A DNA stretch of 64,000 nt from Amphiscolops sp. MND2022 (taxonomy: Eukaryota), in the NCBI GenBank assembly GCA_964187785.1, contig OZ076414.1, positions 39,990,001-40,054,000 on the forward strand, written 5' to 3'. The notes below the pieces were generated by a model. It saw nothing but the letters and a program-made list of their open reading frames with translations, ran no database searches and was not told where the DNA came from. Below are positions 1-55,083 of this stretch, one piece after another. Position 1 is the first letter of the stretch; the number at the start of each line of letters is the position of its first letter. Both the position numbers and the translations under genes were made by a program.

Positions 1-935
1 TCTCCTCTCCACGGATCACTGACTCGACGACTAACTCTACCTCAGCCTCACTCTTCTTTAAGCCGATATCCTGACTTTGACACAACAAGGAATTATCCTC
101 TTCGGTGGAGCTCATGTCTCAAAACTTTCTGAAAAAGTACTAAAAATGATAACACAATGAAGATGTGGCGTAAAACTAAGGGAAATAATAATATTAGAAG
201 TTATCTACTATATAAGGAGAGTCGTTCAGTCTGCCAGCTGAACAATTCACAGCTTAACACAAACGGTGAAACAAATTTCCTAAAGCGACAGAAGTCAGTT
301 GTACTGAAAATTGATTAGTATCCAACTCGCTATTGCAATTCAATGGAGAATACAATTATGAATGATCAAACAAACGACGATGTTTTTATTCTCGACTGAG
401 ACCTGCCAGCACAGCCAAGCCAAAGGCCCAGTACACCACCACATAAATACAATATATTTATTCCACCGCGGATTTATATTACTTACGAGATTATCAAGAC
501 GCAAGACCAACATGTGGTCTTAGTTCATGAAGAAACGCCAACCGACACTACAAACGCGGAGAACGAAAACGGAGTCATAAGACGATTCACCCTGGACAAT
601 CCGGTAAATACTGATGATGCCTTCATAAGCCCAGTCAGACAGTTTGACCAAGGAAATCCGGCCATTCCTGAAGATGGCTTCCATGGTCCCATCAGTTTTT
701 ACAGCAGCTCGAAGGGATATTACTCTGGCAGCAATTGGGACACAGATTCCTCCTGGAGGTCATACGATTCGATGAGAGACGACCTACCAACGCTATTGGA
801 GACACCAGTCCGCTTAGACTCCCAATTCTTTCTCCCAGAAGAGACAGTGCAAAGAAGCCGAGGACTGTCACATCCCAAGCTGAGCTGTGAGAATTGCCAC
901 GAAACAAGCGCAGTCGACGGAGGAGGAAAATGGGA
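1..935 (+). mobile_element. Inverted partial copy of the 3' internal region of the large Gypsy element (divergent promoter + small ORF)
   Basis: Near-exact reverse complement of ~28047-28983 and of the matching part of the 40.6-41.5 kb copy. Homology stops after GGAGGAAAATGGGAG at 935. Confidence 0.9.
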
Positions 936-939
936 GTAG
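343..939 (+). CDS. Small acidic accessory ORF of the Gypsy element (copy A) with in-frame TGA at codon 19
   Basis: ATG 343 (MENTIMNDQTNDDVFILD), TGA 397-399, then open in the same frame through the listed 514-939 ORF. TATATAA at 209-215. Confidence 0.55.
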
Positions 940-12400: not shown

Positions 12401-15400
12401 GGCCTCCATGAAATTCAGATAATTTCAACTTGGGTAAACTTGTTTGAACGAAAATGTACTTTCTCATTGCCTTGCTGGAGCAAGGTGTTTGTTTTCGGAA
12501 AAGTTTTTCCAGTTTTTTTCTCTGGACTGACTTATTCGTACCTCTGCTTTGAGCTCGCGGTGAGTGGTTTTTGTGGTCAAATCCTTTGTACTTCTGAGAC
12601 AGTTTACTTGACTCACGTTCATTTTCTACTTCTCTGCTAGATTCCTTCGATTGCGAGAAGCACTTATCGAAATCCTCCTCCAGAGTAAGAGACATCAGGC
12701 TGGGACATATTGAAGAAGCACAAATTGAGCCTTCAGCATCTTCTATTTGCCATCACAATTGCTGTTTTGCAAAAGCTGTCTTACTCTTCAGTTCAGCAAT
12801 TTCCGATTCTGCTTTCATGGAACCTCTTCTGTATCTCCATTTCCTTACAAGTTTTCTCTAGATCCAACTCACGTTCTCTGTTTTTTTTTTCTATTTCCAT
12901 TTGTAGTTTTTGATCCATCAATTCAGCTTGTATCTCCAATCGTCTTCGGTGGCCTTTTTTGATGGCCAAAGCATTGGAGCCTATTTTTGAACCGGCCTTC
13001 TTTGCTGGCTCACTCGCTCGCTAATGTTCTTGTTTTGGAGTAGTCTGCCAAAAAAAACTTTTACGAGAACCTGAGGTAGCCGATTGAGGTTGACAAAATG
13101 GGTGATCTAGTCGATCATCAAATTTGAGAAAGAACGCTGATTGATTGGCTTCCTTAAGCAATTTCAATCCTTTGTCAAGCGTTTCATTTGCATTTGTTTT
13201 CGTTGGAGCATGTGAACGGATCTCATCGTTCTTTGAAAACTCCGATTTTTCCACACCAGAAACTTCAGGTGTTTCGATGTTTTCCAATGGATCGTTTGCT
13301 GCTGCATTGCAGCTATGATCACAATTCAAAGCGTCAGTCATTGTCTGTATACTAAGGTTCAGTTCTTTGACGATGCTTTGAGCTTCTCGCAATGGTTTGA
13401 TAGAATGGTCAAGGCATCAGATTTGAGAAAATTGCGTCTACCTTCGAGACTCATTTATGGTACCTATTGTAGTTTTTTCTTCGGTAATGGCGCATTTGGC
13501 ATCGTAAAACTGATCGCAGAGTTTGAAATACTTCAAAAAGTCACTTTCAGACTTTAGGAATACGTAGTCACGCTCCTGAGAACTTCGAATGATTTGCTCC
13601 AATTCGCAAAACTTGTTGCAAGTTCGTACTCCAATTTATTCAGGATCCCCATACGACTGCTTTGAAACTTGTCTTTCAGCATGAGAGATATAATCCGAAC
13701 TCTTTGCACAACTTGTCCTTTGAAGATGAGTAAGTTAGGAAGAACGTACCAACGTCAATCCAAACAGTTGGATCCTGACCATGCAGATCCTGGAACTCCG
13801 CGTCTAAGTTTCGGAAAATCCGGATGCAAAAGCTTATTATGATACTTGGTGCATCCGTTTACACAACACACTCTGTCCGACTTGCAGTCTTTCATCAAAT
13901 GAGAGTTTAAACACCAGAAACGAAGTTTAAATTTCTTCTGTGTTTCCTATCTCTCAAACTCTATGTTGTTTGACTTTTATACACGACAAGATTTTAGGGT
14001 CGCCATCTTTCAATGGACACTGCTTTGTTGACGCAGACGTTGATTTGTTCTGCTCATTAGCAGCAAATGTTGAGGTTTTTACTTTTTCCGTATAACTGTA
14101 GCCTTTTTTCTCTGATTGATACTTGAATTGCACTGTCAATACATCTTGGACATAAGCAAATTCGTTCAGCCATTAGCTAAATTTGCGAAGATCAGCATGG
14201 TAGTAACCTTTGCTCTTAGCAACGAAAAACCACTCAGTTTTCAATTCAGTTGGTAACTTCCTCAGAGCTGAGTTCAAAACAGACTCTGGATACAAGTCGC
14301 CAGTGAAACCAAACTGTTTCAACACTTGGACACATGTAGTGATCAACTGAGCGTACTTTATAATAGCCACCGAATTATGCGACTTGATGAATGGACTCAA
14401 ATGGATATTTTTCATCTGAGCCTTCACAATAGTCTGTGGACGTTCGAAATTAGTAACCAAAGCTTTCCACGCTGCACTGTGAATGCCTTTGGGTATTCGA
14501 GACCCGCAATATCCGCCTTGGCCTTGCCTTTAACGAGTGTTTTCAAATATTCATTTCTGCATTGTCATGGGTTGGTGCGTTGTGGATGGTAGCTGTGAAT
14601 AAGCTCGACCAATCTGACCATTCCAATGGGCCTCCATGAAATTCAGATAATTTCAACTTGGGTAAACTTGTTTGAACGAAAATGTACTTTCTCATTGCCT
14701 TGCTGGAGCAAGGTGTTTGTTTTCGGAAAAGTTTTTCCAGTTTTTTTCTCTGGACTGACTTATTCGTACCTCTGCTTTGAGCTCGCGGTGAGTGGTTTTT
14801 GTGGTCAAATCCTTTGTACTTCTGAGACAGTTTACTTGACTCACGTTCATTTTCTACTTCTCTGCTAGATTCCTTCGATTGCGAGAAGCACTTATCGAAA
14901 TCCTCCTCCAGAGTAAGAGACATCAGGCTGGGACATATTGAAGAAGCACAAATTGAGCCTTCAGCATCTTCTATTTGCCATCACAATTGCTGTTTTGCAA
15001 AAGCTGTCTTACTCTTCAGTTCAGCAATTTCCGATTCTGCTTTCATGGAACCTCTTCTGTATCTCCATTTCCTTACAAGTTTTCTCTAGATCCAACTCAC
15101 GTTCTCTGTTTTTTTTTCTATTTCCATTTGTAGTTTTTGATCCATCAATTCAGCTTGTATCTCCAATCGTCTTCGGTGGCCTTTTTTGATGGCCAAAGCA
15201 TTGGAGCCTATTTTTGAACCGGCCTTCTTTGCTGGCTCACTCGCTCGCTAATGTTCTTGTTTTGGAGTAGTCTGCCAAAAAAAACTTTTACGAGAACCTG
15301 AGGTAGCCGATTGAGGTTGACAAAATGGGTGATCTAGTCGATCATCAAATTTGAGAAAGAACGCTGATTGATTGGCTTCCTTAAGCAATTTCAATCCTTT

Positions 15401-16039
15401 GTCAAGCGTTTCATTTGCATTTGTTTTCGTTGGAGCATGTGAACGGATCTCATCGTTCTTTGAAAACTCCGATTTTTCCACACCAGAAACTTCAGGTGTT
15501 TCGATGTTTTCCAATGGATCGTTTGCTGCTGCATTGCAGCTATGATCACAATTCAAAGCGTCAGTCATTGTCTGTATACTAAGGTTCAGTTCTTTGACGA
15601 TGCTTTGAGCTTCTCGCAATGGTTTGATAGAATGGTCAAGGCATCAGATTTGAGAAAATTGCGTCTACCTTCGAGACTCATTTATGGTACCTATTGTAGT
15701 TTTTTCTTCGGTAATGGCGCATTTGGCATCGTAAAACTGATCGCAGAGTTTGAAATACTTCAAAAAGTCACTTTCAGACTTTAGGAATACGTAGTCACGC
15801 TCCTGAGAACTTCGAATGATTTGCTCCAATTCGCAAAACTTGTTTCAAGTTCGTACTCCAATTTATTCAGGATCCCCATACGACTGCTTTGAAACTTGTC
15901 TTTCAGCATGAGAGATATAATCCGAACTCTTTGCACAACTTGTCCTTTGAAGATGAGTAAGTTAGGAAGAACGTACCAACGTCAATCCAAACAGTTGGAT
16001 CCTGAGCATGCAGATTCTGGAACTCCGCGTCTAAGTTTC
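9285..16039 (-). repeat. Triplicated BEL gag region (units 9285-11584, 11589-13812, 13817-16039)
   Basis: ORF pairs are offset by 2228/2227 bp. Units 2 and 3 are nearly identical and unit 1 is clearly more diverged. Identical junction CTAAGTTTCGGAAAATCCGG at 11584 and 13812. Confidence 0.93.
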
Positions 16040-16268
16040 AGAGAATCAAAATTAGATCTGAAACGCGTTTTTCGTGTTCAATCCATTCTTTCATTGTTGA
16101 TGAGTTTTTCAAGCAGTCAGTAAAATAGACCTTTCTTTCACATCCGTTTTTTGATGAAATCACATATGTGGGGTACAACAAATTGCTCACAGTCAGTTTT
16201 GCCATTTTTTGTCTTTTGCAAATCAAATCGAATCCCGCATAGTGCCTTCCCGAGTCGCAGCAACAAAC

Positions 16269-17932
16269 TTTTACGTCGGCTAGGAAGAATAATTAACCAG
16301 GCTTTACGACGGCCCTCGTCTTCACTTTGGAACAAACTTTTCTAATAATTTGTCCGGGAAAGTCACCAGCAGGTTCTTTTGCACTCGATAATTTGCAAAT
16401 ATCTTTCTTCTTCCAAGTCAGGACAAAAAAATTTGTAAGAAGCTTTAGATTTTAGGATATAACCAATTCCACTTATTGCGTTAGAGCTCAAATGGACGTT
16501 ATCCTTTTTCAAGTGTTTGTCACTATAAAGCTGTCTGGAAATGCCTCTGAATTTCCAGCCTTCTTTACGAGAAGCTAATAGTGCGTTCACACTTTTGGAT
16601 TTCTGAGGAAGAGAATGGCGTAATGGTATGCCAAGAACAAAAATACTTTGAACTTTGGTAAGTAAGAAAATAGCGAGATCTGATAGTTCCTGCGATAAAA
16701 CTTCCGCAGATTTTGTGGAAGGGTCGTTATCGCAAAAAAGATCGTTACCTCCAATGAACAGAACAACAGTATCGTAACTGTCCTTTTTCGGGAATGAAAT
16801 GGTAACCGTGTCTTACACAAGCTCTTGGTAAAAATAAAACGTTGAAATTAGCTATATCAAGCTCTTTACTTTGACTATCGGCAATTAACGATTTTCGCTT
16901 TGACGATTTAAAGAAATGATATCACATATATTTTTTTTCGGTTAGACTATTGGGCACAACGAACAAGCATTCGTAGTCGGTGAAGCATTTACTGCATCTT
17001 TGATTGTTGCTCGTGTTTTCTTTAATACATGAACTTCTCTAATCTCTAATAAATAAATTGTTTTTTTTTAGTAGATCTACTTTATCTACTTTCACGTTCA
17101 CATGAACTATAGCAAAACTTGTCGATCCGATGACAATGAAACGAATAAAACCACAAGATTGAAGCAATGAATCTAATTGAAGATGGAATCTCGAATCAAC
17201 TTGTTTTTACTAGGCAATAATCAATTGGTCAGAGTAAAGTCCAATCTATGCTCGAAATTAGTAAAATCTTGAACGATCATTTTCCAAAAGATGCCTTCGA
17301 TGTATTCGAGTTGAAATTAGAGATCAACTGTTTGGTAAGGTACTTAGGTCTCTCCCCATCTTCTCGTCGATTTGGTGGCCAGATTGGAGTCTAATAGGAC
17401 CTACAGAAAATAACACACACTCTCATGTTTACAATCAAGTATACGGGCACCAAAAAGGCTTTACTAAGAAACACAAAGTTAACAAATTGTCCACTCTCGA
17501 GGCGATAAAGTATATAAAGATATTTGTATATCAGCATCTAAAGCATACATTTACACGATTTTGTGGTTCAAGATTATATTTGTTAATTGCCCTCAAATCT
17601 TCTATCAGGTCGCAAAAGCTCTACCGGCTTCCGCCTGGATTCGATATAACCAAATATAGCCTAATTGAAACGTTAAATACACAAGCAGAAAGATAAAATA
17701 CCAAGTTTGTACTATATTAGATGAAATGTCTGATTTTGCCTCAGAAAAAAATGTTTTTCGAATTTTTGCTTTTGATTTTCGGTTTTTCAACCTGAATGGC
17801 AAAAAATATGTCGGTTGCCGACCATCCTAGAGTGTGATTCTCAAAACCCAATCTTTTACAGCCATCTTTCAGGAGCTTTTTAGGGTACTTTTCGAAAATG
17901 CATTTTTTCAGTATTTATTCGAGGCGCCAACA
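16269..17932 (-). repeat. BEL 5' LTR (1.66 kb) followed by tRNA-His-like PBS
   Basis: Starts TGTTGGCGCCTCG at 17932 and ends GACGTAAAA. Downstream GTTGCTGCGACTCGG resembles the complement of the tRNA-His 3' end (TGGTGCCGTGACTCGG). Confidence 0.85.
16363..16910 (-). pseudogene. SGNH hydrolase-like ORF inside BEL 5' LTR
   Basis: IADSQS..GGNDLFCD..KKDNVHLSS. In frame across the site that is shifted in the 3' LTR, and shifted at a different site. Confidence 0.72.
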
Positions 17933-19555
17933 TCAATGAAGCGCAAAAATGTCAAATAATATTGTTCGCGAACATTGTCACAGATATCGTTTTGCTATGA
18001 AAAGACGTTTTTCGACTCGTTGAGAAGGAAGGGTCCAAAACTTTTCCAAAACGGTCTCTCAGAGCACGAAATCAAATTCACTTTTGAAGACTACGTTATT
18101 GGAACCGCTGTCAATACAGTTGTGAGGAAAATTGAAAAGTCACAGAGAAGAGTTTAAGATCTGGTTCTCCAAGCAAAATTTTGAATCATTTGCAGCTGCC
18201 GTCTTTAAACAGCAGGACTCCATTTTTGAACATCTTTTTCTGAACAAAATTTTCCCAGCCATTTACGCGTTGAGACACATGTACGATCAGTGAATTTTGA
18301 CAATTGACAATCTCAATTCTCTAAGCACTGGAAACATAAATGTTTTCCAAAAAACTGAAACTGGGTGTATATTTGTTGCAAAAATTCTATTCCTCGACAA
18401 CAAATAGCGAAGCGTAGTTGAAATATATGGAATTAATACCGATTAACTTGCCCAAATGTCCAAGACAAATTTTCTGGTCAACAAAACATGTCAATTTTAT
18501 GTTATCGATACCAAGGTTATTTTCAATTTTTCAGGGCCCAAACAGAGGGAATTAGTTTTTTTTTCAATTTTGTCCAAGAAAGTTTTGAAATTTTCGCGAG
18601 AATATAGGAAGCAACACAGCATTTAAATCATTCATGTCACTAAGAAGTATTTGAAGTTTCTGAATCAATTTTTATATCATAAATTAAATCAGAGAACAAA
18701 AGCTATGATTTTCAGATATTGTTCAAGCTTAGGGTCTAGTTCAAGATGTCAGATGTTTTTGTTTGTTCACGTCTTTTCCCGTTTTTCCATAAATTTTGGA
18801 ATCGAGGGGAAAACCGACTCGTTAGCGTTAATCAGTAATATTTTCAATTCAATTAATTTCTCAGAAGCAGCGAGTCTAAAAACAGCTCAGAAAACTCTAT
18901 TCGTCCTTTTTCTTCCCTCTCGTTCATTGTTCTTTTTAGACCTTTTTTGAATGTTTTTGTCGACTGTGCGAAAACCCTTTAGCCACACAAAAGGTAAGAC
19001 ACAACCCTTTAGCAACTTTTTGTATAATTCAATCAATACCTTCGAGGCATTCGTTTCGAAAAACTTAAATTGCTTGATTTTCAGCAGTTCAACTTTTCCA
19101 ACCTTTTTGTCCGCATTCAATGATTCAAAAGTAAGTGTTACTTTGAAAAACTGAGGTACTGATTACGATACTATTGTGTGATAATATTATGTTTGGAAGT
19201 TCTAGTCAATTTTTGAATATGACAACTAGATGATGAAATAATATTCAATCGAAACAATATAAATTTGATACCTAAATCAATGATGGGTTTCGATGCAGCT
19301 ATTCAGGGAGCAAACTTTCAAACTATTTCAAGGCAATACTTTGATTATGACGCTTAGTAGCTCCTGCCCTCTCAGTATAGTTTCAAGAACAGTATCAATT
19401 GAAGTTTTCGAAATTAGGGTAACAGCTAGTTGCCTTTTGTTAAGAAAGGTTTTGGGAGAATGTTATAATTTGATGGTTCCAAATATATGTTTCCATTTTA
19501 AATGCTTTGGATAAGAGTTCAAAATTGATTAAAATATGATCAATCTGGGCATGCT

Positions 19556-20415
19556 TCATAAACTCGTTGGTTCTGAATCAAGTCTTAGAAAAGTCCGAGA
19601 CCTTTCATCATATTTTCTATGAGAGTCTTCAGTGAAATTATTTCTGTACACTTTACTCAGCCAGTATTTCAAATTTACTGCAGGAGTAAAGATAGTTGTG
19701 AAAAAGCCTTCAGTGTGACAGTAAGATGTGAAGCTGGAAGAACCCATTAGACAAACCGCTATACCTCTCTTCTTGAAAACCATCGGTTCACTAAAGTCAC
19801 CGTCACTCAGTGACGATTTTTCTGAAAAGTGATAACAGTAATTCCCTGGAAAAATCCTCGATTTATTGTTAAACCCAAGTCGTTGACAATCAATCTTTTG
19901 CAAAGTTGTTTCCATCAGTCTTTCAGCACGTGAGAATGGAGTTCCCTTAATCAAACCCAGCCCAATGGCAAAACCAAGTTTTTTCCCCATTTTTGATCAT
20001 CCTGACTACAAAACGGAAGAATTGCATGCTGAGAGGAACTTCGTTGAAGCACTTGATCCTCAAGTTTGATAACAGCGGCGTCATACGGGTTTCGAGGTCC
20101 TTTTCTGGAAGCCTCATACATGAAATGAACCCAATATCGTTCACAAGAATGATACCTCACTCGCCAATTGTTGGGACTGGAGAAATCTCCGTGAAGTATG
20201 TAAACTTCGAGAGGAGAAGCCCATCGGTTCTCAGCTCCAAAGTAAAGACAATGGGCAGCAGTTAAAACTGCATCTAGCCTTACAAGAGTACCACCGCACT
20301 GGTGAAACCCTCTGTTAACCACTACGAAGAAAGGGTAGTCTGGTGCTGGTTGGCCTCCAATAATCCCAAAGGTCACTTTCGAACTGAATACCACAACTGT
20401 TATCACAAAAAACAT
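19556..20415 (-). pseudogene. Intronless trypsin-fold serine protease homologue, frameshifted, catalytic Ser absent
   Basis: Hydrophobic leader, then IIGG, CGGTLV, TAAHC, YDAAVIKL, GDFSEP. Frameshift in an A-run near 19985. Confidence 0.88.
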
Positions 20416-20619
20416 TTCCCAAAAGCAAAACTGGGAATTGATGGCTTTCGAGGTTCAAGATGTTTCCTATTCAATAAATAAACTTTACTGATCTCGAATT
20501 GATTGTTTTACTGAATGAGATGTATGAACTTCGAAGTTGTTTGCTTCTCCCGATACTCACTGGGTGTCACTTTCATTTTCGTGTTCCATTTCATAAAACG
20601 TAATATAAAGGAGATGTTT

Positions 20620-24707: not shown

Positions 24708-26247
24708 TGAGGGTTTGGAAGTTTGTTCATAGCTAGAATTTTAATGTTGTTTTATTGCTCTTTTAGCATGCATCGTAGCTGTATTTAGATTCAGGACGCT
24801 CATTTTATTGACTGTCATCTTTCTCAGGGTATATAAGCCCAGCATGAGGAGGCTCGGACACAAATTGTGATTGGCAAACTGTTTGAGTACGTTCAATTTT
24901 TGTAGTAGCATCTACTGGTTCAACTAAATCACTCGAATTTGCAAATTTGACAATTTCATATTTTTTGTCAAAATATCTAAATCAATGTGTGAAGTAGCAC
25001 TGAGCATGTGATTACTCTTTTCGCTGTTTCTGTAATTTGTAATGCAAAACTGAGACGAGAGAAAACCGAGCAAGAACACAGAGAAAGACATGGTTTGAGA
25101 GCCCATAGAGACTATGAAAACTCACATTAGGACTTTTTTGAGATCGTAACCACCGGTTTTTGTTGTTTCAGCATTATGCTACCCTTCGTAGCGGAAACCG
25201 TAAAATGAGTCTTTTCGCCTAAAGATCCTGGTTTGGTACTTCAAGCACCTTCTCCTTAGCTTGTAGCTGTGTGGTCTGTCAGATTCATGCGTGCTTTGAT
25301 GTATTTCCCCTGGTTTTATCTATATTTGCTAGCTCGAGAACTAGTTTTGGCAATTTTAGATACTGTTCCCAATTTTAGATACTATCCCCAAGTCACCCTG
25401 AAACTGGAAACTTAGCTCATTCTTGGCCTTGTTGTAGTTGCCTTGCCATGTGCTAGTTAGGCGGTGGTCTTTAGAGTGTCAGGAACATGCCCGTTACTAT
25501 TAGCAATCAAAGACTAGAGCCGGTTGAACAGTTTTCGTTGAAGCACCCACGGCACATTTGTGGCGACGTTCGCCTGTCGCGAGCAATTCACCCATTCCCA
25601 CAGGTTCCTCCACCCCTGTTAACGCGTTAAGCAACCGATTTTAGATTGCCGTTACTTTGCCGTTTCAAGTTGAAACGATTCAAAGTTGATAAAAACCTTT
25701 TCAGGAAATACTTTTTTGCCTTTCTGAACTACGTTTTCATGCCTTCAACTAGAAGTCATAAAGCTGAAGAAAAGATTAAGAGAATTGAACATATTGTCCG
25801 ATTACGGAAATATGGACGTAATACTAAGCGAGGAAAACTCAAACTCACTTTAAAGAGAATTGGGAAATGTGATAAATAGGGTTCAGGTCACAGCGAACCT
25901 GATGCTCTTCCTCATCTCCTGGGAAAGATCATTTCAGGAAAAAGAGATCAGGGATATCGACGCTGGAAATGAGGCTCCCAGACTGGATAGACTGCTAGAA
26001 TCTATAGAGCTTCGGTCATACGAAATGAATATGAGACTTTCCCGAGGGATGGACTCTGCTATTAGCGCCATGGTTATACCTGAAATACAAAGTATTATGG
26101 GAACTTTGCCTTTAGGACAAAGGGTCATAGAGTCTGGTACGTCAGCTAACAATCAAGGGCTTGCTGAAAAGGGGTTAAACACAAATCTAACAAAGAAGGA
26201 TACCAGGTCTGCTCACGATCTTAGAGATACTGTGGATCTAATCCTCA
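24708..26247 (+). mobile_element. Gypsy-type solo LTR (~1.54 kb) containing gag start
   Basis: TGAGG...CCTCA flanked by CATG on both sides (alternatively TGTGAGG 24706...CCTCACA 26249 with no TSD). ATG 25739 (MPSTRSHK) and gag-like ORF 25860-26252. Confidence 0.75.
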
Positions 26248-26369
26248 CATGAAGAGAACTCGGATACATCGCTGTCTTTTTGTTTGCTGAGAATTTGTTC
26301 CCAACAATCTTTGAATTTTTTATCTTGTAAAAACCGGAAATTTGAGACTGAGTTATTTTTCTTGGATTG

Positions 26370-28030
26370 TGTGTTGACCCTCTAATGGGGGCAACAAGTT
26401 TATCACAGTTGACCGGGATGTTGAAGCTTGATTTTCAATATCTTCATGATATACTTCTGAATTTTCAGTCCTGGGAGTTTGACCGGACAATGAATCTATT
26501 TTTGAAGATAGATTTTCAATCATCTTGAGGATTTCTCTTTGTCCAAACTCGGTAACTTTTGTCCTTTTATTACGGATTTTTCAATCTTTTCTGATATTTC
26601 AGAGAAGTCTCAGTCAGAAATGCTAGGCACGTTTTCAGTCTTTGGCTAGTGGTTTCAGGGTCACCTAGTGAACTAGATACAGAAGCTCTTCTTGCTTTTC
26701 TTTTAGACAATCTCTCAGGCATTTTGGCTTGGGATTTTCCAGAAAGCTAGAGATTATTCGACGAAAATGACAAAATGAAGACAGTTGAGACTTTTGAGAT
26801 TTATTGACTATCGAAGAACGAAGAAAACAAAATTGTTTTACAAGTAGGATTCAAATTTTCAACTCAAATTAATTGAAATTTTCCAGGTATATATACTTTC
26901 CGCATACGTGAAGCAGGAAAAATCCGCGATACTTTCACACCTCGTTCAGCCCGGCGTCCTTCCAAGGCGAAGAAACAGGAAGTTCAGTTCCGCTTTGTCG
27001 AACTCAGACTCTCAGTTTGTTCATTCTTTTCGGGGACAACAAGCGTCCACTTCCTGTCTGAGTTGGGACTCCGCTTCCCTTCGCCTCCAATTCCCGCCTC
27101 TTCGGAACGCCGAAGCTGAACAAAATGTCAAAAGTGAATCACTGCAAGCGCCCAAAGGGCGAAATAATGAAACAAAGCAACAATGAAAATAAGAAATTTC
27201 TCATATATATCCAATTAATTTAATCACTGCATAAACTGATGATCAATCCAGTTATGTTGATGGACCAACAACCAGAAATATAATTTCACTCACAACACGT
27301 TAGCAGCATTGATTGAGAGAGGGAGATGAAAATCTTGGACCTGGGCTGCGGTCCAGGACGATTAGGAAAATAAATAACTTCTCATAGTAAAAAAGCTGAA
27401 ATAGCAACACCTGAAATTTTACATGAAGCAAATAGTCTATGGGGCATTGTTCAGGGTACTGATTATTCCAATTGAACGAAAAATTGGCTTGAAAAAGGTA
27501 GCACAAATCATTTATAGTAATTAAATTGCGCGGATTGAAAATTCAGTTTCAGGCCAAGGTCTGGGCCGTGATTTCATATATTTATCAACTATACTTAGTT
27601 TACATGAATAAATAGCATCGTACTTTTCTTTCAACTATCAATCAATATTTTTAATCACTGTTATTAGTTGTTAGGCTCATTGGGAGGGAAAATTACCAAT
27701 AACATTTTCCATTTCGACAATGGATTTCATAAACTTTCCATTTCATGCCGCGTCCTAGGTCACGGTACATTGGTATTTTCAAATTTAGCACTCGTGTTCC
27801 TTTATTTGCACAATTGCCAGTATAGCGCTTTGTCAGTCATCTTTCCAACACTAAAAGTTTTACATATATTCGTTTTCAACTCGTTCGCATATTGGATTAA
27901 CGCGTGCCGTGCTTTCAGTTCTTAGGCCGCTTGCCAGGCCGACGCCTCACAGCTCGAATTTGAGGCCGGCTGCCAGCAGTTCCGCCATTAATTTCTCAGG
28001 TCGCCTGCCGCCTCGGTATTGGTTGGTACA
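26370..28030 (-). repeat. Gypsy 3' LTR (proposed 1.66 kb; could be longer)
   Basis: TATA palindrome GTATATATAC 26887-26896, AATAAA (minus) 26800-26805, gag-like ATG 26722. Homology to the 38915 copy ends exactly at the PBS junction. Confidence 0.7.
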
Positions 28031-28641
28031 CCTTCTATATATGTATTCTCCCATTTTCCTCCGTCGTCGACTGCGCTTGTTTCGTGGCAATTCTCACAGC
28101 TCAGCTGGGGATGTGACAGTCCTCGGCTTCTTTGCGCTGTCTCTTCTGGGAGAAGGAATTGGGAGACTAAGCGGATTGGTGTCTCCAATAGCGTTGGTAG
28201 GTCGTCTCTCATCGAATCGTATGACCTCCAGGAGGAATCTGTGTCCCAATTGCTGCCAGAGTAATATCCCTCCGAGCTGCTGTAAAAACTGATGGGACCA
28301 TGGAAGCCATCTTCAGGAATGGCCGGATTTCCTTGGTCAAACTGTCTGACTGGGCTTATGAAGGCATCATCAGGATTTTCCGGATTGTCCTGGGTGAATC
28401 GTCTTATGACTCCGTTTTCGTTCTCCGCGTTTGTAGTGTCGGTTGGCGTTTCTTCATGAACTAAGAGCACGTGTTGGTCTTGCGTCTTGATAATCTCGTA
28501 AGTAATATTAATTCGCGGTGGAATAAATATATTGTATTTATGTGGTGGTGTACTGGGCCTTTGGCTTGGCTGTGCTGGCAGGTCTCAGTCGAGAATAAAA
28601 ACATCGTCGTTTGTTTGATCATTCATATTTGTATTCTCCAT
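27988..28641 (-). CDS. Small acidic accessory ORF (copy B), in-frame TGA at 28585-28587
   Basis: 218 codons from ATG 28641. Same frame as listed ORF 27988-28470. TATA (minus) at 28769-28775. Confidence 0.55.
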
Positions 28642-28868
28642 TGAATTGCAATAGCGAGTTGGATACTACTCAATTTTCAGTACAACTGACTTCTGTCGCT
28701 TTAGGAAATTCGTTTCACCGTTTGCGGTAAGCTGTGAATTGTTCAGTCGGCAGACTGATTAACTCTCCTTATATAGTAGATAACTTCTAATATTATTATT
28801 TCCCTTGTTTTTACGCCACATCTTCATTGTGTTACCATTTTTAGTACTTTTTCAGAACGTTTTGAGAC

Positions 28869-31800
28869 ATGCGCTCCACCGAAGAGGATAATTCCTTGTT
28901 GTGTCAAAGTCAGGAGATCGGCTTGAAGGAGAGTGAGGCTGAGGTAGAGTCAGTCGTCGAGTCAGTGATCCGTGGAGAGGAGAGAGTGGATGGTAGTGGT
29001 GACACGGATGAGAGTGATGAGGCGAGTGTTGCTGGTAGTCAAGACGGAGAGGCTGTTGCAGGCGTAGTGGCCGAGACGACAGGACGTGGATTTGGTGAAA
29101 ACGATGCCACAGAAGATGAAATTGTTGAAGCGGATGTTGATAGCTGCCCTGAGAGTGGGTCCTACCGTTCTGCCACAAGCTATGGTCGTCATGACATAGA
29201 TTACGTGGCGAACAAGAAAGGTAAGCTTTCCTAGAACTTAAATGGGTGGCCGGCTCTTTCTAGTTTTGTTTGAACGCGTTCTTTTCACATCGACTTTCCG
29301 CAATTACTGATGATGATGAGCTTGATGAAAATTATTGTCCAAGCGCCAATACAAAGTCGCAGCACAAGAAGAAGAAGAAGTGTTGCTCCAGTCGGATGCT
29401 TTCAACGAGCAGTGTCCGGTCAGCTAAGCGTGTGCGATTGGCTGATGTTGTTGCAGGGGTCATTCCAAGGCCTCCCACTTCGATGGACAGCTCTGGCGAG
29501 GATTATGATCCGCTGACTATTTCTGCTTCTAGAACTCTTGAAAGTAGGTATACCTTCATCCTGTTTTCTTGTTTGTTTGCTGCATCATAGATCTGGTTAT
29601 TGATTGAAGATGTTCTGTTTTAGAATATGAAGAACTGTCTCGGTTATTGAAACAGAAAGTGATTGATGCCAGTGATCCTGGGCGTGTTTTGGACCCTGTC
29701 GAACTCAAAAACGAACGGCTTTTGGCTAGAGACGAGGAAGGCGCAAAAAAACAGACTGAGAGGCATAAACTAAAGCCACGACCACCCACCTGATACCAAG
29801 GCTATTTGTCAGTCGTCGGAATGATAAAAGCCCGAACGGCTTGAATTGCTCTGTGTGCCGGAAGGATGTGTCCTTCCTGTCCCGTGGGCCCCTAGGCATT
29901 TGGATGCACTTTAAGTGCAGAGGCGATTACGCAAAGGATCGGTGTTACCGGTTCGAGCACGAGGACTTCATCTATACTGAGAAGTTCGATGCCATCCCTG
30001 TTAGTGAAGTGTCATTTGAATTGCGAGCTGAGATCGAAAAGACGCCACCAGTAACTCTGATAAAAATGAAGAACTTTGTTGAGGACGAGGTGGATGCATT
30101 GGTTGGCGTCCCGTCCAATGTGCCCCCCACTATACTTGTTGGTTGTTTGTTTGAGCTTTTGAGGAGTGGTGGCTCACAGACGTTCGTTTCTTCGTCGTCT
30201 GTGCGTCAATTTCGTACCACACTTCTAGTCGATTGCCTAATCGTATGCCTGTGTTACCTGGAGCAAGTCTGAGACCTTGGTTGTGATTGTTCAGACCCTG
30301 TACCCACGCGTACTTCGTCGTTTGAAGTCATGGCTAGGTGAGAGCCCTTTTAGCTTGTCAGCGCAATCGTTATTCTACGGGGTGCGATTTACCGTCCGAT
30401 GCTGTCCCGATGACTCTTTGCGGGAAGTATGTCTCGTGGATGAAGACGTTGGAGTTGCTTCCTGTGAATCAGAAATTCGGTGTCTATCCAGCGTGTTGTC
30501 CTTGGCGTCCACTCGCCGTGGGCCTATTGCTATTCAAAACTGCCCTCCTGTATTATTTAACGCTTATGTGGATTGGTGTCGTTCTGTCGGTCGACCTGTG
30601 CCTGTTGTTGCTGCCATCTTTGACTCCGATCTTCTCCGTCGTTTAGTTCGCGATGCTAGTTCGGTGTGTGCTGGGTCCGTGGATCCCTTTGCAGCCATAG
30701 AGTATCTGGCATAACGTTTGAAGAAATTTTTTCACCAGGCCTGGCTTCTGAACTTGCCACAATTCCGTCTCTGCTTGGAGTCTGGGGTTGTTCCTTGTGA
30801 GACCTTGAGTGATGTATTGCAAGAGCTCCTGGACAATTGGTCCGATGTCAAAATGTGTCTATCGAACGATGTCTTGCTGATGAGGAAAAACATCAATGTC
30901 GTAGATCTGCATTACCTCCTGTGTTCAAACTGTTTGGGTCTGCCTCGACTAGCTTTGTTGGACGTTCTTTTGCTGTTTTCGTTCGAATTGCAAGAAGTTG
31001 TTTGAATCGGGAGTTACAGATTACACGAGCAGGAGTTTTCCTGATTTTTGATTTTTTTCTATTGGAGTTTTATGAGTAAGGTGAAAAAGATAAGCCAGTC
31101 ACCTTCTATCGACAATTGGTCTTACTACATTGACAAGCCATTGAACAGTTCGGCAAATGTGACTGCTTCTGAATGTCTGCAAGGACAACCCAGTTTCATG
31201 AAGGCACTGACTGGTCTTGACGAGGGTCCCGGCGGTCATTCCTCCGTGAATGTCTAGGATATTTATCAGAATTTTTAAAGGTTCTTGGTTCGTGCTCTTA
31301 CGCCAAATTTCGTGTTGCTCGATCGCTCAGTTGCTTGAGTGTCGACATGCTGTTGGGTGGTGACGCCGACTATGTCATGGATTTATTCCAGGACCTAGTC
31401 CTCTGTCTCCAGGAATCCGGGTGTCTGGGCGATGTGGAGCGGGATGCCGCAACAAACGAATTTAAATTTTTGGTTGTGGATTTACGTCAACGGTGTGTTG
31501 ATTGCTCACAGATTTCTGATGTGTTCAACTATTTGGAGGGGATTGAGAGTTACCAGTGTTGGGCCTATGTAAAGCAAATTGTGCAACTGGTTCGTGTGAT
31601 TGTTTGCCCTGCTCCCAAATCATTGCTCTTGTTGATATTTCCACTAGTGGGACGAGCTTGCCTCCGTCTGTGATTCGGTCAGGTCTCCGTGGTGTACAAT
31701 TGTTTGTGTTGCAGCCTAATTTCATGTCGTCTGATTTACTGTCTGTAGAATGCCTGGAGGAGTTGAAACTGAATCTGCCTAATGGACCTCATTTTTTGGG

Positions 31801-32068
31801 TTGTGGCTCTTTCAATCCATGGGCTGGCGTGAATCGTCATTCCAGTGAAGAGATCTACAGTAGTTTGTTTGAGTGCTACACTGCCTATTATTCTGGGCAG
31901 GTGGAGGATTGGAGGACACGGAAGTCGTCTGGTGCTGCAGTGCGTTCGGGCTCTACTGTTGGTCGTGTCTCTGCTGATTGTAGCCAGCCTGAGTCGTGTT
32001 CGTCATCTCAGGCGGGAAAAGGAAGTAAGCGTGCTGCGCGTCAAGGAAGTCATGTTGAACTCTTTTAG
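28869..32068 (+). pseudogene. Antisense, intron-containing ~1000-codon gene within the Gypsy element (acidic N-terminus, basic NLS-like tracts, CxxC..H Zn-finger-like motif)
   Basis: ATG 28869. Introns 29221-29303 and 29544-29623 restore the reading frame. KKKKK, RSAKRVRL, CSVCRKDVSFLSRG..WMHFKC. ORFs 29841-32068 are contiguous, broken only by stops and shifts. Confidence 0.75.
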
Positions 32069-37334: not shown

Positions 37335-39269
37335 TTAAGAGTAGAGACCTTTTATTCTTTTTGTTTTCGGTTTGGAGGTGGTTGCCTCCGTGTTGATTGT
37401 GGGTTGTGTCGGGTCCACGGCTTCAATCGTGGTCCTGCCGGTGAGATGTTCATGTAAGAGGCAGTGGGATGCCACCTTCATTGTTGGAGACCGTATGGTT
37501 CCGGCTCTGATGGGGTTTAATGGTTGATCTTTCGATGGTGATTCTGGAGCCGTGGTATTGGATCCATGGTTTTTGAGTATGGATTTGGCCTTGTTGTTCA
37601 TATTATCGACTAGTGTTTCTGTCACTCGTTCCGTGTCCTTGTCGCAGTCTGGGACAGGTTGGACTGTTTTTGGTCTGCGACGTGGTTTCGTTGAGATGTT
37701 CATTCCGGTTTTCTTGATGTACTCCTCGGTTGGCGTGCACTCTCGCTGTTTGAAGGTTAATGTCACTTTGTCGTAGATTTGGGGATTGTGGCAGGGGTCA
37801 CAGTTGAAGTAGGGGTCGTGAATGTAGGTTTCGGGAGAGGTACTTTCTGGTAAGGGTCGTTTTGGAGTAGTATAGTCGGTCGTCGGATTGTCAAGGTACC
37901 ATTGCGGGCAGTCGTTTTTGGTCGTTGTTTGGCGGTTGTATTTGTGGAGCTTGTGAATTTGCCATCTTCGCTGCCAGTCGAGAGATCGTTGTTCACGGCG
38001 CTCTTTATGTTCATTACGTGATCGTATGTGTTTGGGGGTTCAGATGTTGTGAGATGTCGCATTTCGACAATTTCCCCAAACTGAAGATGTGACAAAGCTA
38101 GTTTTTTGGATGAGTTTGATCTTGGGGTTGGATTTGGGTTTGAGCTGCCATTTGGACAGGGGGTAGATAGCACATTTGGCCGGTTGCCTGGTGGTGGTAT
38201 TGAGGTTGGGTCGCTTGTAAGTTATCTTTTACGAACTGACCTTGTGGTTGTGGTGGTATCGGATTGTTGTTTGGGGACGTAGTCTTGGGGCTTTCCACCA
38301 CTGTGGTCTATTTGCCCAATCGGCACCCGAGTAGCAGTCTTGTGTTGTGTGGTTCGACAATTTTGTTGGGTACTCTGTTGCCTCTATTGCGAGCTTTGCG
38401 GGCTATTTTCTGGCAATTCTTGACAACGTGGCCAGTTTGTCCGCATCCATAACATGGGCCTGACAGTTTGGGAGGATTTGGGGCTTGTTGCTCACATTTG
38501 CAGCGGCTGTTGCGATGGAATGGGGTCGTACATATCGACGTCGGAATGTTGCAATGATGTCTTCCAGGCTGGCACGGTTTCTGTTGGTCATATTGCGGTA
38601 GGTTTGAAGCGCATCGTCCCTGAGTAGGGAATGGAAGTAATGAATTTGTTCTTCCTCAGAGATGCTAGGGTATACATTGAGGCTTGTCATGAAGAGGTCG
38701 TCGAAATGCTCGAATTTGTCATTCCGTCTGTTGAATGTAGGCATAGTTGTTGACAATGCCTTCGGCAATCTGGGAAGTCCGATGTTCTCTTGGGTAACAT
38801 TTTGGAGTGATTCAAGCAGTTTGTCGACTATGTGGTGCGGATATTTCTGGTTGGGAGGCTGCAGGCTCGATGACCGGGGCGGTATTTCTGTTTGGGGGAA
38901 TACTCCTGTCACCATGTGTTGACCCTCTAATGGGGGCAACTCGTTTATCACAGTTGACCTGGATGTTGAAGCTTGATTTTCAATATCTACATGATCTACT
39001 TCTGAATTTTCGGTCCTGGGCGTTTGACCGGACAATGGATTGATTTTTGAGGATAGATTTTCAATCATCTTGAGGATCCCTCTTTGGCCAATCTCGGTAT
39101 CTTTTATCCTTTTAATGACGGATTTTTCAATCTTTTCTGATATTTCACAGAAGTCTCGGTCAGAAAAGCTAAGCACGTTTTCAGTCCTTTGACTAGCGGT
39201 CTCAGGTTCATTTAGTGAACTAGATACAGAATCTCTTCTTGCTTTTCTTTTAGATGATCTCTCAGACAT
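37335..39269 (-). pseudogene. gag: Gypsy gag, starting inside the 5' LTR
   Basis: ORF 38403-39269 (MSERSSKRK...LPKALSTTMPTF..KFEHFDDLF..IHYFHSLLRDDALQTY), continuing in fragments to 37335. Confidence 0.85.
38903..38914 (-). promoter_or_regulatory. Primer-binding site TGGTGACAGGAG (first 7 nt match the tRNA-Trp 3' end)
   Basis: Directly follows LTR terminal CA. Marks where the 26370 and 38915 copies stop matching. Confidence 0.65.
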
Positions 39270-40575
39270 TTTGGTTTGGGATTTTCCAGAAAGTTCAAGA
39301 TTATTCGACGAAAATGAAGACAGTTGAGAGTTTTGATATTTATTGATTATCGAAGAACGAAGAAAACAAAATTGTTTTACAAGTAGGATTACAATTTTTC
39401 AACTCAATTTATTTCAAAATTTCCAGGTACATATATTGTCCGCACACGTGAAGCGGGAAAAGTCCGCGATACTTTCACACCTCGTTCAGCCCGGCGTCGT
39501 TCCAAGGCGAAGAAAAAGAGAATTCAATTCCGCTTTGTCGAACTCAGACTCTCATTTTGTTCATGCTTTTCGGGGAAAGCAAGCGTCCACTTCCTGTCTG
39601 AGTTGCGACTCCGCTTCCCTTCGCCTCCAATTCCCGCCTCTTCGGAACGCCGAAGCTGAAAAAAATGTCAAAAGTGAATCACTGCACGCACCCAAAGGGC
39701 GAACTAATGAAACAAAGCAACAATGAAATTGAGAAATTTCTCATATATATCCAATTAATTTAATCACTGCATAAACTGATGATCAATCCAGTTATGTTGA
39801 TGGACCAACAAACAGAACTATAATTTCACTCACAACACGTTAGCAGCATTGATTGAGAGAGGGAGATGAAAATCTTGGACCTGGGCTGCGGTCCAGGACG
39901 ATTAGGAAAATAATAACTTCTCATAGTAAAAAAGCTGAAATAGCAACACCTGAAATTTTACATGAAGCAAATTGTCTATGGGGCCTTGTTCGGGGTACTG
40001 ATTAATCCAATTGAACGAAAAATTGACTTGAAAAAGGTAGCACAAATCATTTATAGTACTTAAATTGCGCGGATTGAAAATTCAGTTTCAGGCCAAGGTC
40101 TGTGCCGTGATTTCATATATTTATCAACTATACTTAGTTTAGCTGAATAAATAGCATCGTACTTTTCTTTCAACTGTCAAACAATATTTTTAATCACTGT
40201 TATTAGTTGTTAGGCTCATTGGGAGGGAAAGTTACCAATAACATCAACATTTTCCATTTCGACAATGGATTTCATAAACTTTCCATTTCATGCCGCGTCC
40301 TAGGCCACGGTACATTGGTATTTTCAAATTTAGCACTCGTGTTCAATTATTTGCACAATTGCATGTATAGCGCTTTGTCAGTCATCTTTCCAACACTAAA
40401 ACTTTTACATATATTCGTTTTCAACTCGTTCGCATATTGGATTAAAGCGTGCCGTGCTTTCAGTTCTTAGGCCGCTTGCCAGGCCGACGCCTCACAGCTC
40501 GAATTTGAGGCCGGCTGCCAGCAGTTCCGCCATTAATTTCTCAGGCCGCCTGCCGCCTCGGTATTGGTTGGTACA
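38915..40575 (-). repeat. Gypsy 5' LTR (proposed)
   Basis: Direct repeat of 26370-28030. Confidence 0.7.
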
Positions 40576-41186
40576 CCTTCTATATATGTATTCTCCCATT
40601 TTCCTCCGTCGTCGACTGCGCTTGTTTCGTGGCAATTCTCACAGCTCAGCTGGGGATGTGACAGTCCTCGGCTTCTTTGCGCTGTCTCTTCTGGGAGAAG
40701 GAATTGGGAGACTAAGCGGATTGGTGTCTCCAATAGCGTTGGTAGGTCGTCTCTCATTGAATCGTATGACCTCCAGGAGGAATCTGTGTCCCAATTGCTG
40801 CCAGAGTAATATCCCTCCGAGCTGCTGTAAAAACTGATGGGACCATGGAAGCCATCTTCAGGAATGGCCGGATTTCCTTGGTCAAACTGTTTGACTGGGC
40901 TGATGAAGGCATCATCAGGATTTACCGGATTGTCCTGGGTGAATCGTCTTATGACTCTGTTTTCGTTCTCCGCGTTTGTAGTGTCGGGTGGCGTTTCTTC
41001 ATGAACTAAGACCACGTGTTGGTCTTGCGTCTTGTTAATCTCGTAAGTAATATTAATCCGCGGTGGAATAAATATATTGTATTTATGTGGTGGTGTACTG
41101 GGCCTTTGGCTTGGCTGTGCTGGCAGGTCTCAGTCGAGAATAAAAACATCGTCGTTTGTTTGATCATTCATAATTGTATTCTCCAT
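40533..41186 (-). CDS. Small acidic accessory ORF (copy C), in-frame TGA at 41130-41132
   Basis: ATG 41186, same frame as listed 40533-41015 ORF. Confidence 0.55.
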
Positions 41187-41413
41187 TGAATTGCAATAGC
41201 GAGTTGGATACTAGTCAATTTTCAGTACAACTGACTTCTGTCGCTTTAGGAAATTTGTTTCACCGTTTGTGTTAAGCTGTGAATTGTTCAGCTGGCAGAC
41301 TGAACAACTCTCCTTATATAGTAGATAACTTCTAATATTATTATTTCCCTTGGTTTTACGCCACATCTTCATTGTGTTATCATTTTTAGTACTTTTTCAG
41401 AAAGTTTTGAGAC

Positions 41414-42661
41414 ATGAGCTCCACCGAAGAGGATAATTCCTGGTTGTGTCAATGTCAGGAGATCGGCTTGAAGGAGAGTGAGGCTGAGGTAGAGTCAGTC
41501 GTCGAGTCAGTGATCCGTGGAGAGGAGAGAGTGGATGGTAGTGGTGACACGGATGAGAGTAATGAGGCGAGTGTTGCTGGTAGTCAAGACGGAGAGGCTG
41601 TTGCAGGCGTAGTGGCCGAGACGACAGGACGTGGATTTGGTGAAAACGATGCCACAGAAGATGAAGTTGTTGAAGCGGATGTTGAGAGCTGCCCTGAGAG
41701 TGGGTCCTACCGTTCTGCCACAAGCGATGGTCGTCATGACATAGATTACGTGGCGAACAAGAAAGGTAAGCTTTCCTAGAACTTAAATGGGTGGCCGGCT
41801 TTTTCTAGTTTTGTTTGAACGCGTTCTTTTTACATCGACTTTCCGCAGTTACTGATGATGATGAGCTTGATGAAAATTTTTGTCCAAGCGCCAATACAAA
41901 GTCGCAGCACAAGAAGAAGAAGAAGAAGTGTCGCCCCAGTCGGATGCTTTCAACGAGCAGTGTCCGGTCAGCTAAGCGTGTGCGATTGGCTGATGTTGTT
42001 GCAGGGGTCATTCCGAAGCCTCCCACCTCGATGGACCGCTCTGGCGAGGATTATGATCCGCTGACTATTTCTGCTTCTAGAACTCTTGAAAGTAGGTATT
42101 CCTTCATCCTGTTTTCCTGTTTGTCTGCTGCATCAAAGATCTGGTTATTGATTGAAGATGTTCTGTTTTAGAATATGACGAGCTGTCTCGGTTATTGAAA
42201 CAGAAAGTGATTGATGCCAGTGATCCTGGGCGTGTTCTGGACCCTGTCGAACTCAAAAACGAGCGGCTTTTGGCTCGAGACGAGGAACGCGCAAAGAAAC
42301 AGACTGAGAGGCATAAACTAAAACCACGACCAACCACATGATACCAAGGCTACTTGTCAGTCGTCGGAATGATAAAAGCCCGAACGGCTTGAATTACTCT
42401 GTGTGCCGGAAGGATGTGTCCTTCCTGTCCCGTGGGCCCCGAGGCATTTGGATGCACTTTAAGTGCAGAAGCGATTACGCAAAGGATCGGTGTTACCGGT
42501 TCGAGCACGAGGACTTCATCTATACTGAGAAGTTCGATGCCATCCCTGTCAGTGAAGTGTCATTGGAATTGCGAGCTGAGATCGAGAAGACGCCACCAGT
42601 CACTCTGATTAAAATGAACAACTTTGTTGAGGACGAGGTGGATGCATTGGTTGGCGTCCCG
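41414..42661 (+). pseudogene. Second copy of the antisense intron-containing gene, cut by the gap
   Basis: Canonical introns 41766-41848 (GTAAGC..CCGCAG) and 42092-42171 (GTAGGT..TTTTAG). Confidence 0.78.
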
Positions 42662-45702: not shown

Positions 45703-46544
45703 GGCAGCTTTTGATTTTGGCAATAATGCATTTCATAATTAGTTTTGGCATTGTGTTCGAAAGTGACCTTTGGGATTATTGGAGGCCACCAGCACCAGAC
45801 TACCCTTTCTTCGTAGTGGTTAACAGAGGGTTTCACCAGTGCGGTGGTACTCTTGTAAGGCTAGATGGAGTTTTAACTGCTGCCCATTGTCTTTACTTTG
45901 GAGCTGAGAACCGATGGGCTTCTCCTCTCGAAGTTTACATACTTCACGGAGATTTCTCCAGTCCCAACAATTGGCGAGTGAGGTATCATTCTTGCGAACG
46001 ATATTGGGTTCACTTCATGTATGAGGCTTCCAGAAAAAAAGGACCACGAAGTCCTTTTGATGCTGCAATAATCAAACTTGACGATCAAGTGCGCAGACAA
46101 AGTTCCTCGCAACAAGCAATTCTTCCGTTTTGCCGTAAAGAGGGCCATAAGTGGAAGAAAGGCAGACTTGGCTATGCCATTGGTTTAGGTATTACTAGTT
46201 TCAATCCAATATCACGAGCTGAGAGACTGATGGAAACAACGTTGCGGATGATTGAATGCCAAAGCCTTGACTTTATGAAGCAAGGAGAAAATTTTAGGGA
46301 AAGACGTTGTTATCGCTTTCAGAAAGAATCGTCACTGAGTGACGGTGACTTTGGTGGACCGATGGTTTTCAAGAAGAGAGGTATAGCGGTTTGTCTAATG
46401 GGTTCTTCCAGCTTCACATCTTATTGTCATAATGGAGACTTTTCTGCAACTATCTTTACCCCAGCAGGAGACTTGTGGCATTGGCTAAGCAATGTATACA
46501 GATATAATTTCACTGAAGACTCTCGCGCAGCCGAAATTTCGTAA
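45698..46544 (+). CDS. Intronless trypsin-fold serine protease homologue, catalytic Ser->Phe; indel(s) in the leader/IIGG region
   Basis: CGGTLV, TAAHC, PFDAAIIKL, SDGDFGGPM. One base is missing after ATTATTGGAGGCC relative to the paralog at 20.3 kb. Confidence 0.85.
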
Positions 46545-47364
46545 AAAAGAATACCGAACTGTTCTAATACTTTATCCAGGAACAACAATTGTATGAAGCT
46601 GAAAAACGATCCTAGTTTGGCCCCATTTTAAACTCTCATCCAATGATTTTTGGAATATGTATTTGAAGGCAAGCGAGGGGTTACATTGTCGCGAAATTAC
46701 TATTAAATGAGCGGAAGGTAGTTGCCACAAACTTTTTACAACCTTTTTGGGGCCATCTTATCAATTGCATGACTTTGAATACAAGGTATGAGCATTGTAT
46801 AAACATAAAGCTTCTTGATGAAAATTTTCCGAGTCTATTCTGAGCCAACTCGTCAAATAGCAGATGTAGAACAGAATAACGATCCGAATTGATGCTCAGA
46901 AACTAACCAGGAACTTCACCATACACAGCCGTATTATTTAAAGATTGTTTCAACAAGCTGCCCTGACTAACTGTTGAAAAAAGTTTCAATTATCATACAG
47001 TCACGCTGAAGTATTTCTATCAATTTTTTAACTTCCTAAACAGTCATTGGTAAATGATCCGACAATTTGAAGAAAATTGAAAAGTGAAAGAAACTTCATT
47101 CTATGAAGCTAGCTATCCGTTTTTGACGCAAGTCAGTAAACAGTACCCAGTAACTCTATCGTAGCAACAGCATTTATGCAGTACCCTCATAAAGTTAATG
47201 CCTTACACGTCACTATGGCGTAAGCAGAACAACGCCTTTGGATATTTGCCCTGAACTCATTATCCTAGAAACCGTTAAAACGTTAAAACCTTTCTTTTTT
47301 CACAGTCAGGTGATTTCATTTTATGGTATATTGATAATGATCTTTGGATCATTTGAGCAATATA

Positions 47365-54960: not shown

Positions 54961-55083
54961 CGTTCCTTTCTGCTCGAATACATCTCTGCGCTCACTGTTT
55001 TTTGTTTCTGCCTAAAGAGTCCATGTTTCACAGGCATATAACAGGTCGCTATTTCCGTACAAATAAAATCAACAGCGGATGTC

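Follow-up and report, generated by a model that had tools for sequence, protein, structure and literature searches.

How the antisense and 3' extra open reading frames (ORFs) carried by long terminal repeat (LTR) retrotransposons originated and are expressed is given as an open question in the available part of one account (PMC7264820). A 64,000-nucleotide (nt) stretch of the genome of Amphiscolops sp. MND2022 (contig OZ076414.1, positions 39,990,001 to 40,054,000; here called the window, whose own numbering is used throughout) contains one decayed Gypsy element on its minus strand, with a 5' LTR, gag, pol fragments and a 3' LTR. Between pol and the 3' LTR lies a small sense ORF that spans the polypurine tract (PPT) into U3 and, head-to-head with it in the same interval, an antisense gene. 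Here we report that the gap between their start codons is a conserved, putative control region between two accessory genes under selection. The element and its accessory cassette are laid out as follows.

26370..28118, minus strand: 3' LTR (TG...CA), delimited by self-repeats of other copies, ends and target-site duplications (TSDs)
28119..28135, minus strand: PPT-like purine-rich tract, read from the sequence, adjoining the LTR and within the small ORF
27988..28641, minus strand: small sense orphan ORF of copy B, broken at codon 19; 194-216 amino acids in unbroken relatives
28585..28587, minus strand: premature stop common to copies A, B and C, found at 3 of 30 loci
28869..32068, plus strand: antisense intron-containing gene with a hAT-transposase fold; in the window, about 650 nt are missing near 29573 and the last exon is divided
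38915..40663, minus strand: 5' LTR of the window unit, then a TGG-starting primer-binding-like site
115..936: copy A, in opposite orientation, with the antisense-gene ATG at 115 (minus) and the small-ORF ATG at 343 (plus); cut by an N gap at 975
40533..41414: copy C, with the small-ORF ATG at 41186 (minus) and the antisense ATG at 41414 (plus); part of a tandem unit

The three window copies of the cassette are 96-97% alike, copy A being the tail of a third element whose orientation is opposite to that of the main one. A first-pass annotation had placed two ATGs about 230 bp apart with a TATA between them, and both observations hold: the ATGs stand at 28641 (minus) and 28869 (plus), with 227 nt between, and TATATAAG occupies 28775-28768 on the minus strand, 209-216 (plus) in copy A and 41320-41313 (minus) in copy C. 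The same layout is indeed present in all three copies, but as evidence of conservation it fails, since lesions are common to all three and the copies must be counted as one; the frame from the 28641 ATG ends after 18 codons in A, B and C and, among 30 loci, only in these window copies. The window copies of the cassette are dead, and its conservation is established by diverged families instead.

Two sets of loci were used for this purpose. The first consists of the best 30 of 58 DNA matches; identity across the gap was calculated over 25 of them, after removal of three loci that are rearranged and of two of the window copies. The second comprises 60 loci, drawn from the first 69 listed of 366 exact genomic matches to a palindromic core within the gap (9 already seen or adjoining another match were left out), and is circular for that core only. 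It divides into 37 loci of a clade that includes the TATA and 23 of a sister clade. In addition, ten sister elements were picked by their antisense protein, which is 44-50% identical in that clade. The gap and its flanks contain the following features.

28659..28673, minus strand: site of a branch-like YTGAC and YAG acceptor ahead of the ATG of the small ORF; the motif has decayed in the window copies
28707..28725: GTGTGAA/GCGTGAA block, 86.7% mean identity over 25 copies, in both clades
28736..28765: inverted repeat with an 18-nt core common to both clades, 91.3% identity, decayed in copy B
28768..28775, minus strand: TATATAAG, directed at the small ORF, in the TATA clade only
28810..28825, plus strand: TTTACGCCAC block, in both clades, at 56 of 60 loci, 91.6% identity
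28851..28855, plus strand: TTYAG acceptor after a U-rich stretch, 13 nt before the antisense ATG, without a conserved nearby donor

The distance from ATG to ATG is 217-231 nt in the TATA clade and 260-351 nt in the sister clade (48 of 60 loci with both ATGs located). Within it, the inverted repeat, the TATA and the TTTACGCCAC block average 91-92% identity, as against 62-69% for the spacers; for comparison, second codon positions of the small ORF reach 85%, and third positions 64% and 49%. The 18-nt palindromic core, whose 366 exact matches compare with 0 for a control, is also exact in five of six sister elements picked by protein and has one mismatch in the sixth. TTACGCCAC is present at 56 of the 60 loci. 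The TATA is distributed differently: TATAWAWR pointing toward the small ORF occurs at 36/37 TATA-clade loci and 0/23 sister-clade loci, 18 of which have TTACGTCA in its place, and on the antisense strand it was found within 40 nt of the core at none of the 60. As 14% of 5000 resampled gaps contain TATAWAWR and 48% contain TCAGT by chance, neither motif is evidence alone. The initiator-like (Inr) TCAGT, which had been assigned to copy A, in fact follows the TATA in all three copies (28758-28754 in B); we rejected it as an Inr on account of this chance frequency, of its spacing, 19 nt separating its A from the T that opens the TATA, and of its being an arm of the inverted repeat. The TTTACGCCAC block was likewise rejected as a general host promoter word (1362 genomic matches, 1397 in the control), and the TATA as a family-wide signal. 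On their distribution, the signals common to the whole family are the palindrome and the TTTACGCCAC block; TATA and Inr are not among them. The labels TATA-consensus, CRE-like and, below, Sm motif are presumptive ones of our own.

Both genes flanking the gap are maintained by selection. Over 29 copies of the small ORF (L021, which is rearranged, was left out), pairwise dN/dS (the ratio of nonsynonymous to synonymous substitution rates) is 0.43, 0.32 and 0.17 in rising classes of dS for pairs above dS 0.15, and 0.78 for the 6 closest pairs; four shifted frames give 1.1-1.6, and the mirror frame 0.24-0.49, as expected. The ORF occupies the same place and is open in all ten sister elements (E <= 6e-37), nine of which have LTR pairs 99.2-99.9% identical and so belong to young families. 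One finding that would have refuted the first-pass annotation, a small ORF lacking conservation in diverged subfamilies, was not obtained: the ORF is present at 58 of 60 loci, with about 38% identity across clades. At the column of the 28641 start codon, ATG is found at 20 of 30 loci (in four cases by eye, the codon being broken up in the alignment), ATA at 9 and neither at 1. The overlap with the LTR, which had been put at about 40 nt, is 131 nt in copies B and C, where the stop at 27988 follows an LTR deletion, and about 74 nt in A and most others. On these substitution patterns, the small ORF is a real gene under purifying selection.

Its product, in the nine proteins read, has 198-216 residues, is acidic, consists of 27-33% serine, threonine and proline, and carries across clades invariant motifs such as YEII...H.VL.H and GY.SGSDW.TDSSW, which lie far from the PPT. 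No env-like transmembrane segment was found in these nine (maximum 19-residue hydropathy 0.31-0.79). Nothing exceeded the Pfam cut-off, the Atlas gave no usable hit, and no named relative emerged: 51 hits were unnamed and from a single source, and 37 further hits were nameless. The structural model is predicted disordered, with a predicted local distance difference test score (pLDDT) of 39.6, too low for a fold search. Such a protein is likely to be a disordered, acidic, motif-driven regulator.

The antisense gene has a last exon of 831 codons (L058), and its exons 1 and 2 show dN/dS of 0.18-0.47 above dS 0.15. All ten extended sister loci, a subset of the genome matches, sit within Gypsy elements. 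The proposal of a two-gene accessory cassette is supported: the genes are head-to-head, both are under purifying selection, and both are kept in 10/10 sister elements. The antisense protein returned nothing over the Pfam cut-off, and a PDB sequence search found nothing below E 0.15. The Atlas features of the antisense protein point to hAT/ZBED5/GTF2IRD2 clusters (0.94), and its model (pLDDT 72.7), with an RNase H core and a helical insertion as in a Hermes-like fold, retrieved Hermes in all of the top 10 Foldseek rows (best E 5e-4). Fold comparison with Hermes gives Z 13.5 and a root-mean-square deviation of 5.1 over 410 aligned residues, the next unrelated entry having Z 5.2. A finger of the form C-x2-C...H-x5-H (C89, C92, H109, H115) is invariant in 19 sequences. 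Among the same 19 no D or E is invariant where strands 254-260 and 314-316 end, nor at 688-700, and CxxH is missing from 334-348, as against host hATs with D, D, CxxH and E. With the catalytic sites mapped onto host hATs by secondary structure, these residues have apparently been lost, and the gene probably encodes a derivative of a transposase that binds DNA but does not cut it. A free hAT DNA transposon has terminal inverted repeats and 8-bp TSDs around its gene; in 8 regions looked at here, the core palindrome was not found again 3' of the antisense gene. Intron 1 (29221-29303 in the window) is 81% conserved, as against 49-64% at third positions; in both clades, including L091, it contains a small hairpin around TGGCCAG and an ACGCGT word, possibly an RNA element. 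In L091, L130, L132 and L097, small ORFs 94-98% identical stand beside clearly different antisense first exons, which suggests that cassette halves are exchanged between families.

A splice acceptor precedes the antisense ATG in both clades and the small-ORF ATG in the TATA clade. At 52 of 55 loci a U-rich stretch that ends in TTYAG is found no more than 40 nt before the antisense ATG, CAG and TAG exchanging; a donor-like word between core and acceptor occurs at only 8 of these 52, at positions that are not shared. We also rejected GTAAGT at about 28498 as an antisense donor, about a third of 30 copies having no GT there by eye. Upstream of the small-ORF ATG, YTGAC followed by YAG is found at all 32 TATA-clade loci with a located ATG, and in 0.15% of shuffles. 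No consensus donor is shared by eight LTRs on either strand; in the antisense direction it is absent from 4 of the 8, and the rest have none at a common place. As real donors can be weak, an argument from missing consensus donors is soft. Outrons in spliced leader (SL) trans-splicing have the look of an unpaired acceptor ahead of the ATG, and here such an acceptor is found in a host with SL RNA genes. For an acoel, SL trans-splicing of 30.2% of genes is given in the available part of PMC9911081, and the SL motif reported there has 2355 matches in the present genome, as against 0 for a control. An array of SL RNA genes (L222) with a period of 0.7-0.9 kb has SL|GTAAGT and an Sm-like site in all three units read, while four of four dispersed SL-headed copies (L138-L141) continue into non-GT sequence and are likely retro-copied mRNAs. 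Matches, array and dispersed copies together make it likely that the host is an acoel with working SL splicing. Retro-copies in the genome that would link the SL to one or the other accessory gene were sought and gave 0 matches per pattern, which is not evidence of absence.

The interpretation that we tentatively favor, at a little short of an even chance, is that the gap is a divergent internal promoter and that both of its messages are SL trans-spliced. The gap would start transcripts on both strands, and host SL trans-splicing would finish both at the acceptors just before each ATG. In the TATA clade, sense transcription would begin near 28745, if the customary spacing of about 30 nt from the TATA applies, and the resulting outron would measure about 85 nt. 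The internal bidirectional promoter proposed in the first-pass annotation therefore survives in part: the gap's conserved blocks of non-coding sequence agree with a promoter, but the TATA is specific to one clade and the supposed Inr is a palindrome arm. Firmer is the antisense half. A sense transcript from the 5' LTR cannot make the antisense gene, and a promoter for it within the gap is probable whether transcription from the gap runs both ways or one way only. The pairing of a dead DNA-binding transposase with a disordered protein would suit an LTR-independent switch-on or anti-silencing module that would work as the foamy virus internal promoter does for Tas and Bet; this is the function that we favor, although its probability is low. 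The fullest version is unlikely: a single palindromic promoter would run the LTR-independent cassette, SL-spliced both ways, and would itself be bound by the dead transposase, which would thereby regulate the module.

Several observations weigh against divergent transcription with trans-splicing on both sides. The TATA is absent from the sister clade even though that clade keeps both genes, and the TTTACGCCAC word lacks genome-wide enrichment. The branch-like word with YAG is found at 0/19 sister loci, of which 10 have any YAG 3-25 nt before the small-ORF ATG. Weak donors do occur in this gene family (GTGGGT and GTTATT, read by eye from L091), an upstream GTTCAC column is conserved at 54 of 60 loci, and sense-strand donors may lie in the preceding 10 kb. 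The inverted repeat, moreover, can form an RNA hairpin from either strand, and given this hairpin and the conserved intron 1 some of the conserved blocks may be RNA elements.

The alternative that survives best, possible but doubtful, is a promoter that works in one direction: the gap would drive only the antisense gene, probably trans-spliced, and the small ORF would be served, as env is, by a cis-spliced message that starts in the 5' LTR. Such splicing could equally use the branch-like word and acceptor before the small ORF; the TATA is missing at 23/23 sister loci, most of which keep the small ORF, and a spliced sense accessory mRNA has been described for Cer1 (CERV; PMC10309623, in the part available). 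Set against this are a TATA block without mismatch and in the right orientation, conserved at 92% in one of the clades, and the lack of a shared consensus sense donor in the 8 LTRs. Decidedly unlikely is a scheme confined to the LTRs, in which the sense message would be spliced from the 5' LTR, an antisense promoter would lie in the 3' LTR, as for HBZ of HTLV-1, and the conserved blocks would be RNA export or packaging elements. The core hairpin, at -10 to -16 kcal/mol in 7/7 cores folded, and the similar conserved hairpin in intron 1 would suit it, and antisense LTR promoters are known (PMC7264820, available part); however, the strand on which G-U pairs favor the hairpin is not the same in the two clades, a pattern in keeping with a DNA palindrome, no antisense donor is common to the LTRs, and Rfam gave 0 matches in 26000-29500. 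That the small ORF is no gene at all, its frame kept by PPT, LTR-end and RNA constraints alone, is very improbable and largely refuted: the missing Pfam family and usable Atlas hit, the low pLDDT and the broken window frame are outweighed by dN/dS far below that of the four shifted frames, by open frames in 10/10 sister elements and by motifs far from the PPT conserved at 38% overall identity.

The carrier itself has the characters of a Ty3/Gypsy element, with TG...CA LTRs, a primer-binding site, a PPT and 5-bp TSDs, the last found in five of five relatives tested, elements outside the window unit; the TSD of the window unit is masked by the tandem unit and the N gap. By Pfam, pol has the order protease, reverse transcriptase, RNase H, integrase in the sister element L092, and reverse transcriptase is also found in the window. 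The window LTRs are 93.9% identical. The 3' LTR is some 200-250 nt shorter than in other copies; its edge at 28118, where TGTCAC is preceded by a purine tract, was set by LTR pairs in other copies. The 5' LTR (40663-38915) doubles as the 3' LTR of the tandem unit, which is cut by the N gap at 42662. This unit (40664-42661) breaks off at the N gap and may reflect a join made in assembly; several copies have tandem units or internally duplicated segments with a common LTR, for example G000:C12:11094501-11110600 and G000:C2:41057001-41074400. In 7 of 8 LTRs compared, gag begins within the LTR, about 350 nt before its end (26724 and 39269 in the window). A region conserved across clades at about 26890-27130 (minus), apparently the LTR promoter, contains GGCGGGAA, CAGGAAGT and GCTGAAC..GGTGTGAA, followed by GTATAAATA about 230 nt ahead of gag; we take these words to be of E2F, ETS and T-box type. 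Words that this region has in common with the gap (AGCTGAA, TGAACA, GTGTGAA) are at about chance level and constitute a weak lead.

Elsewhere in the window, an inverted pair of ORFs, 82% alike, lies at 19507-20430 and 45709-46643, presumably encoding trypsin-like serine proteases. A duplicated fragment with a GGNDL motif (4136-4477 and 16266-16941) is presumably SGNH-like, and a 219-residue ORF at 47807-48466 we take to be a fragment of a Tc1/mariner-type transposase. Local tandem duplications, 92-99% identical, occupy 9276-16047 and 55080-57284.

Several known systems resemble the cassette in part. The antisense ORFs of plant Gypsy elements (Grande gene23, RIRE2) likewise lie between pol and the 3' LTR and are conserved within families; gene23 of maize Grande is transcribed from its own upstream promoter, and the plant ORFs are said to show no similarity to other transposable elements (all PMC7264820, in the part available). 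TRP28 of Retand, described in the accessible part of PMC11963269, is another antisense ORF of a plant Gypsy element with a likeness to the cassette gene. Unlike the plant ORFs, the Amphiscolops gene has introns, a hAT fold, a head-to-head sense ORF and an unpaired acceptor before its ATG. In foamy virus, Tas and Bet are driven by an internal promoter that is separate from the LTR (PMC13220597, available part). The likeness lies in 3' accessory genes on an internal promoter; no sequence relation was found, and no env was seen in the Gypsy family. The foamy virus internal promoter is one-way, in the sense direction. The nef gene of HIV and SIV spans the PPT and ends in U3, and is made by cis-splicing from the 5' LTR. 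The comparison of the small ORF with a nef-type 3' gene accordingly stands for position, spanning the PPT and ending in U3; no homology was found, and the overlap is only 74-131 nt. CERV of Cer1 in C. elegans is likewise an orphan sense accessory protein in the env position; it differs in having 517 residues and being spliced from gag-frame exons, and the available text describes no antisense partner (PMC10309623). With hAT transposases (Hermes; ZBED5/GTF2IRD2-like) the antisense protein shares the fold over about 410 aligned residues and the N-terminal C2H2 finger; unlike them, it has apparently empty DDE and CxxH positions and is carried within LTRs with 5-bp TSDs. Judged by sequence, the cassette belongs to none of gene23, foamy virus, nef, CERV or Retand, and neither a hAT-derived antisense gene nor a divergent cassette in Gypsy was found in the open-licence literature, subscription journals and repeat databases lying outside the search.

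This Gypsy family gives an origin for one antisense extra ORF, in a DNA-transposase fold, and offers a concrete candidate route of expression, through a pair of acceptors whose positions are known, in a host that has SL RNA genes. If divergent transcription with SL trans-splicing is correct, a simple retrotransposon would have reached gene regulation like that of complex retroviruses by a different route, and SL trans-splicing would give elements a means of expressing their downstream genes in which no genomic RNA need be spliced from the LTR.

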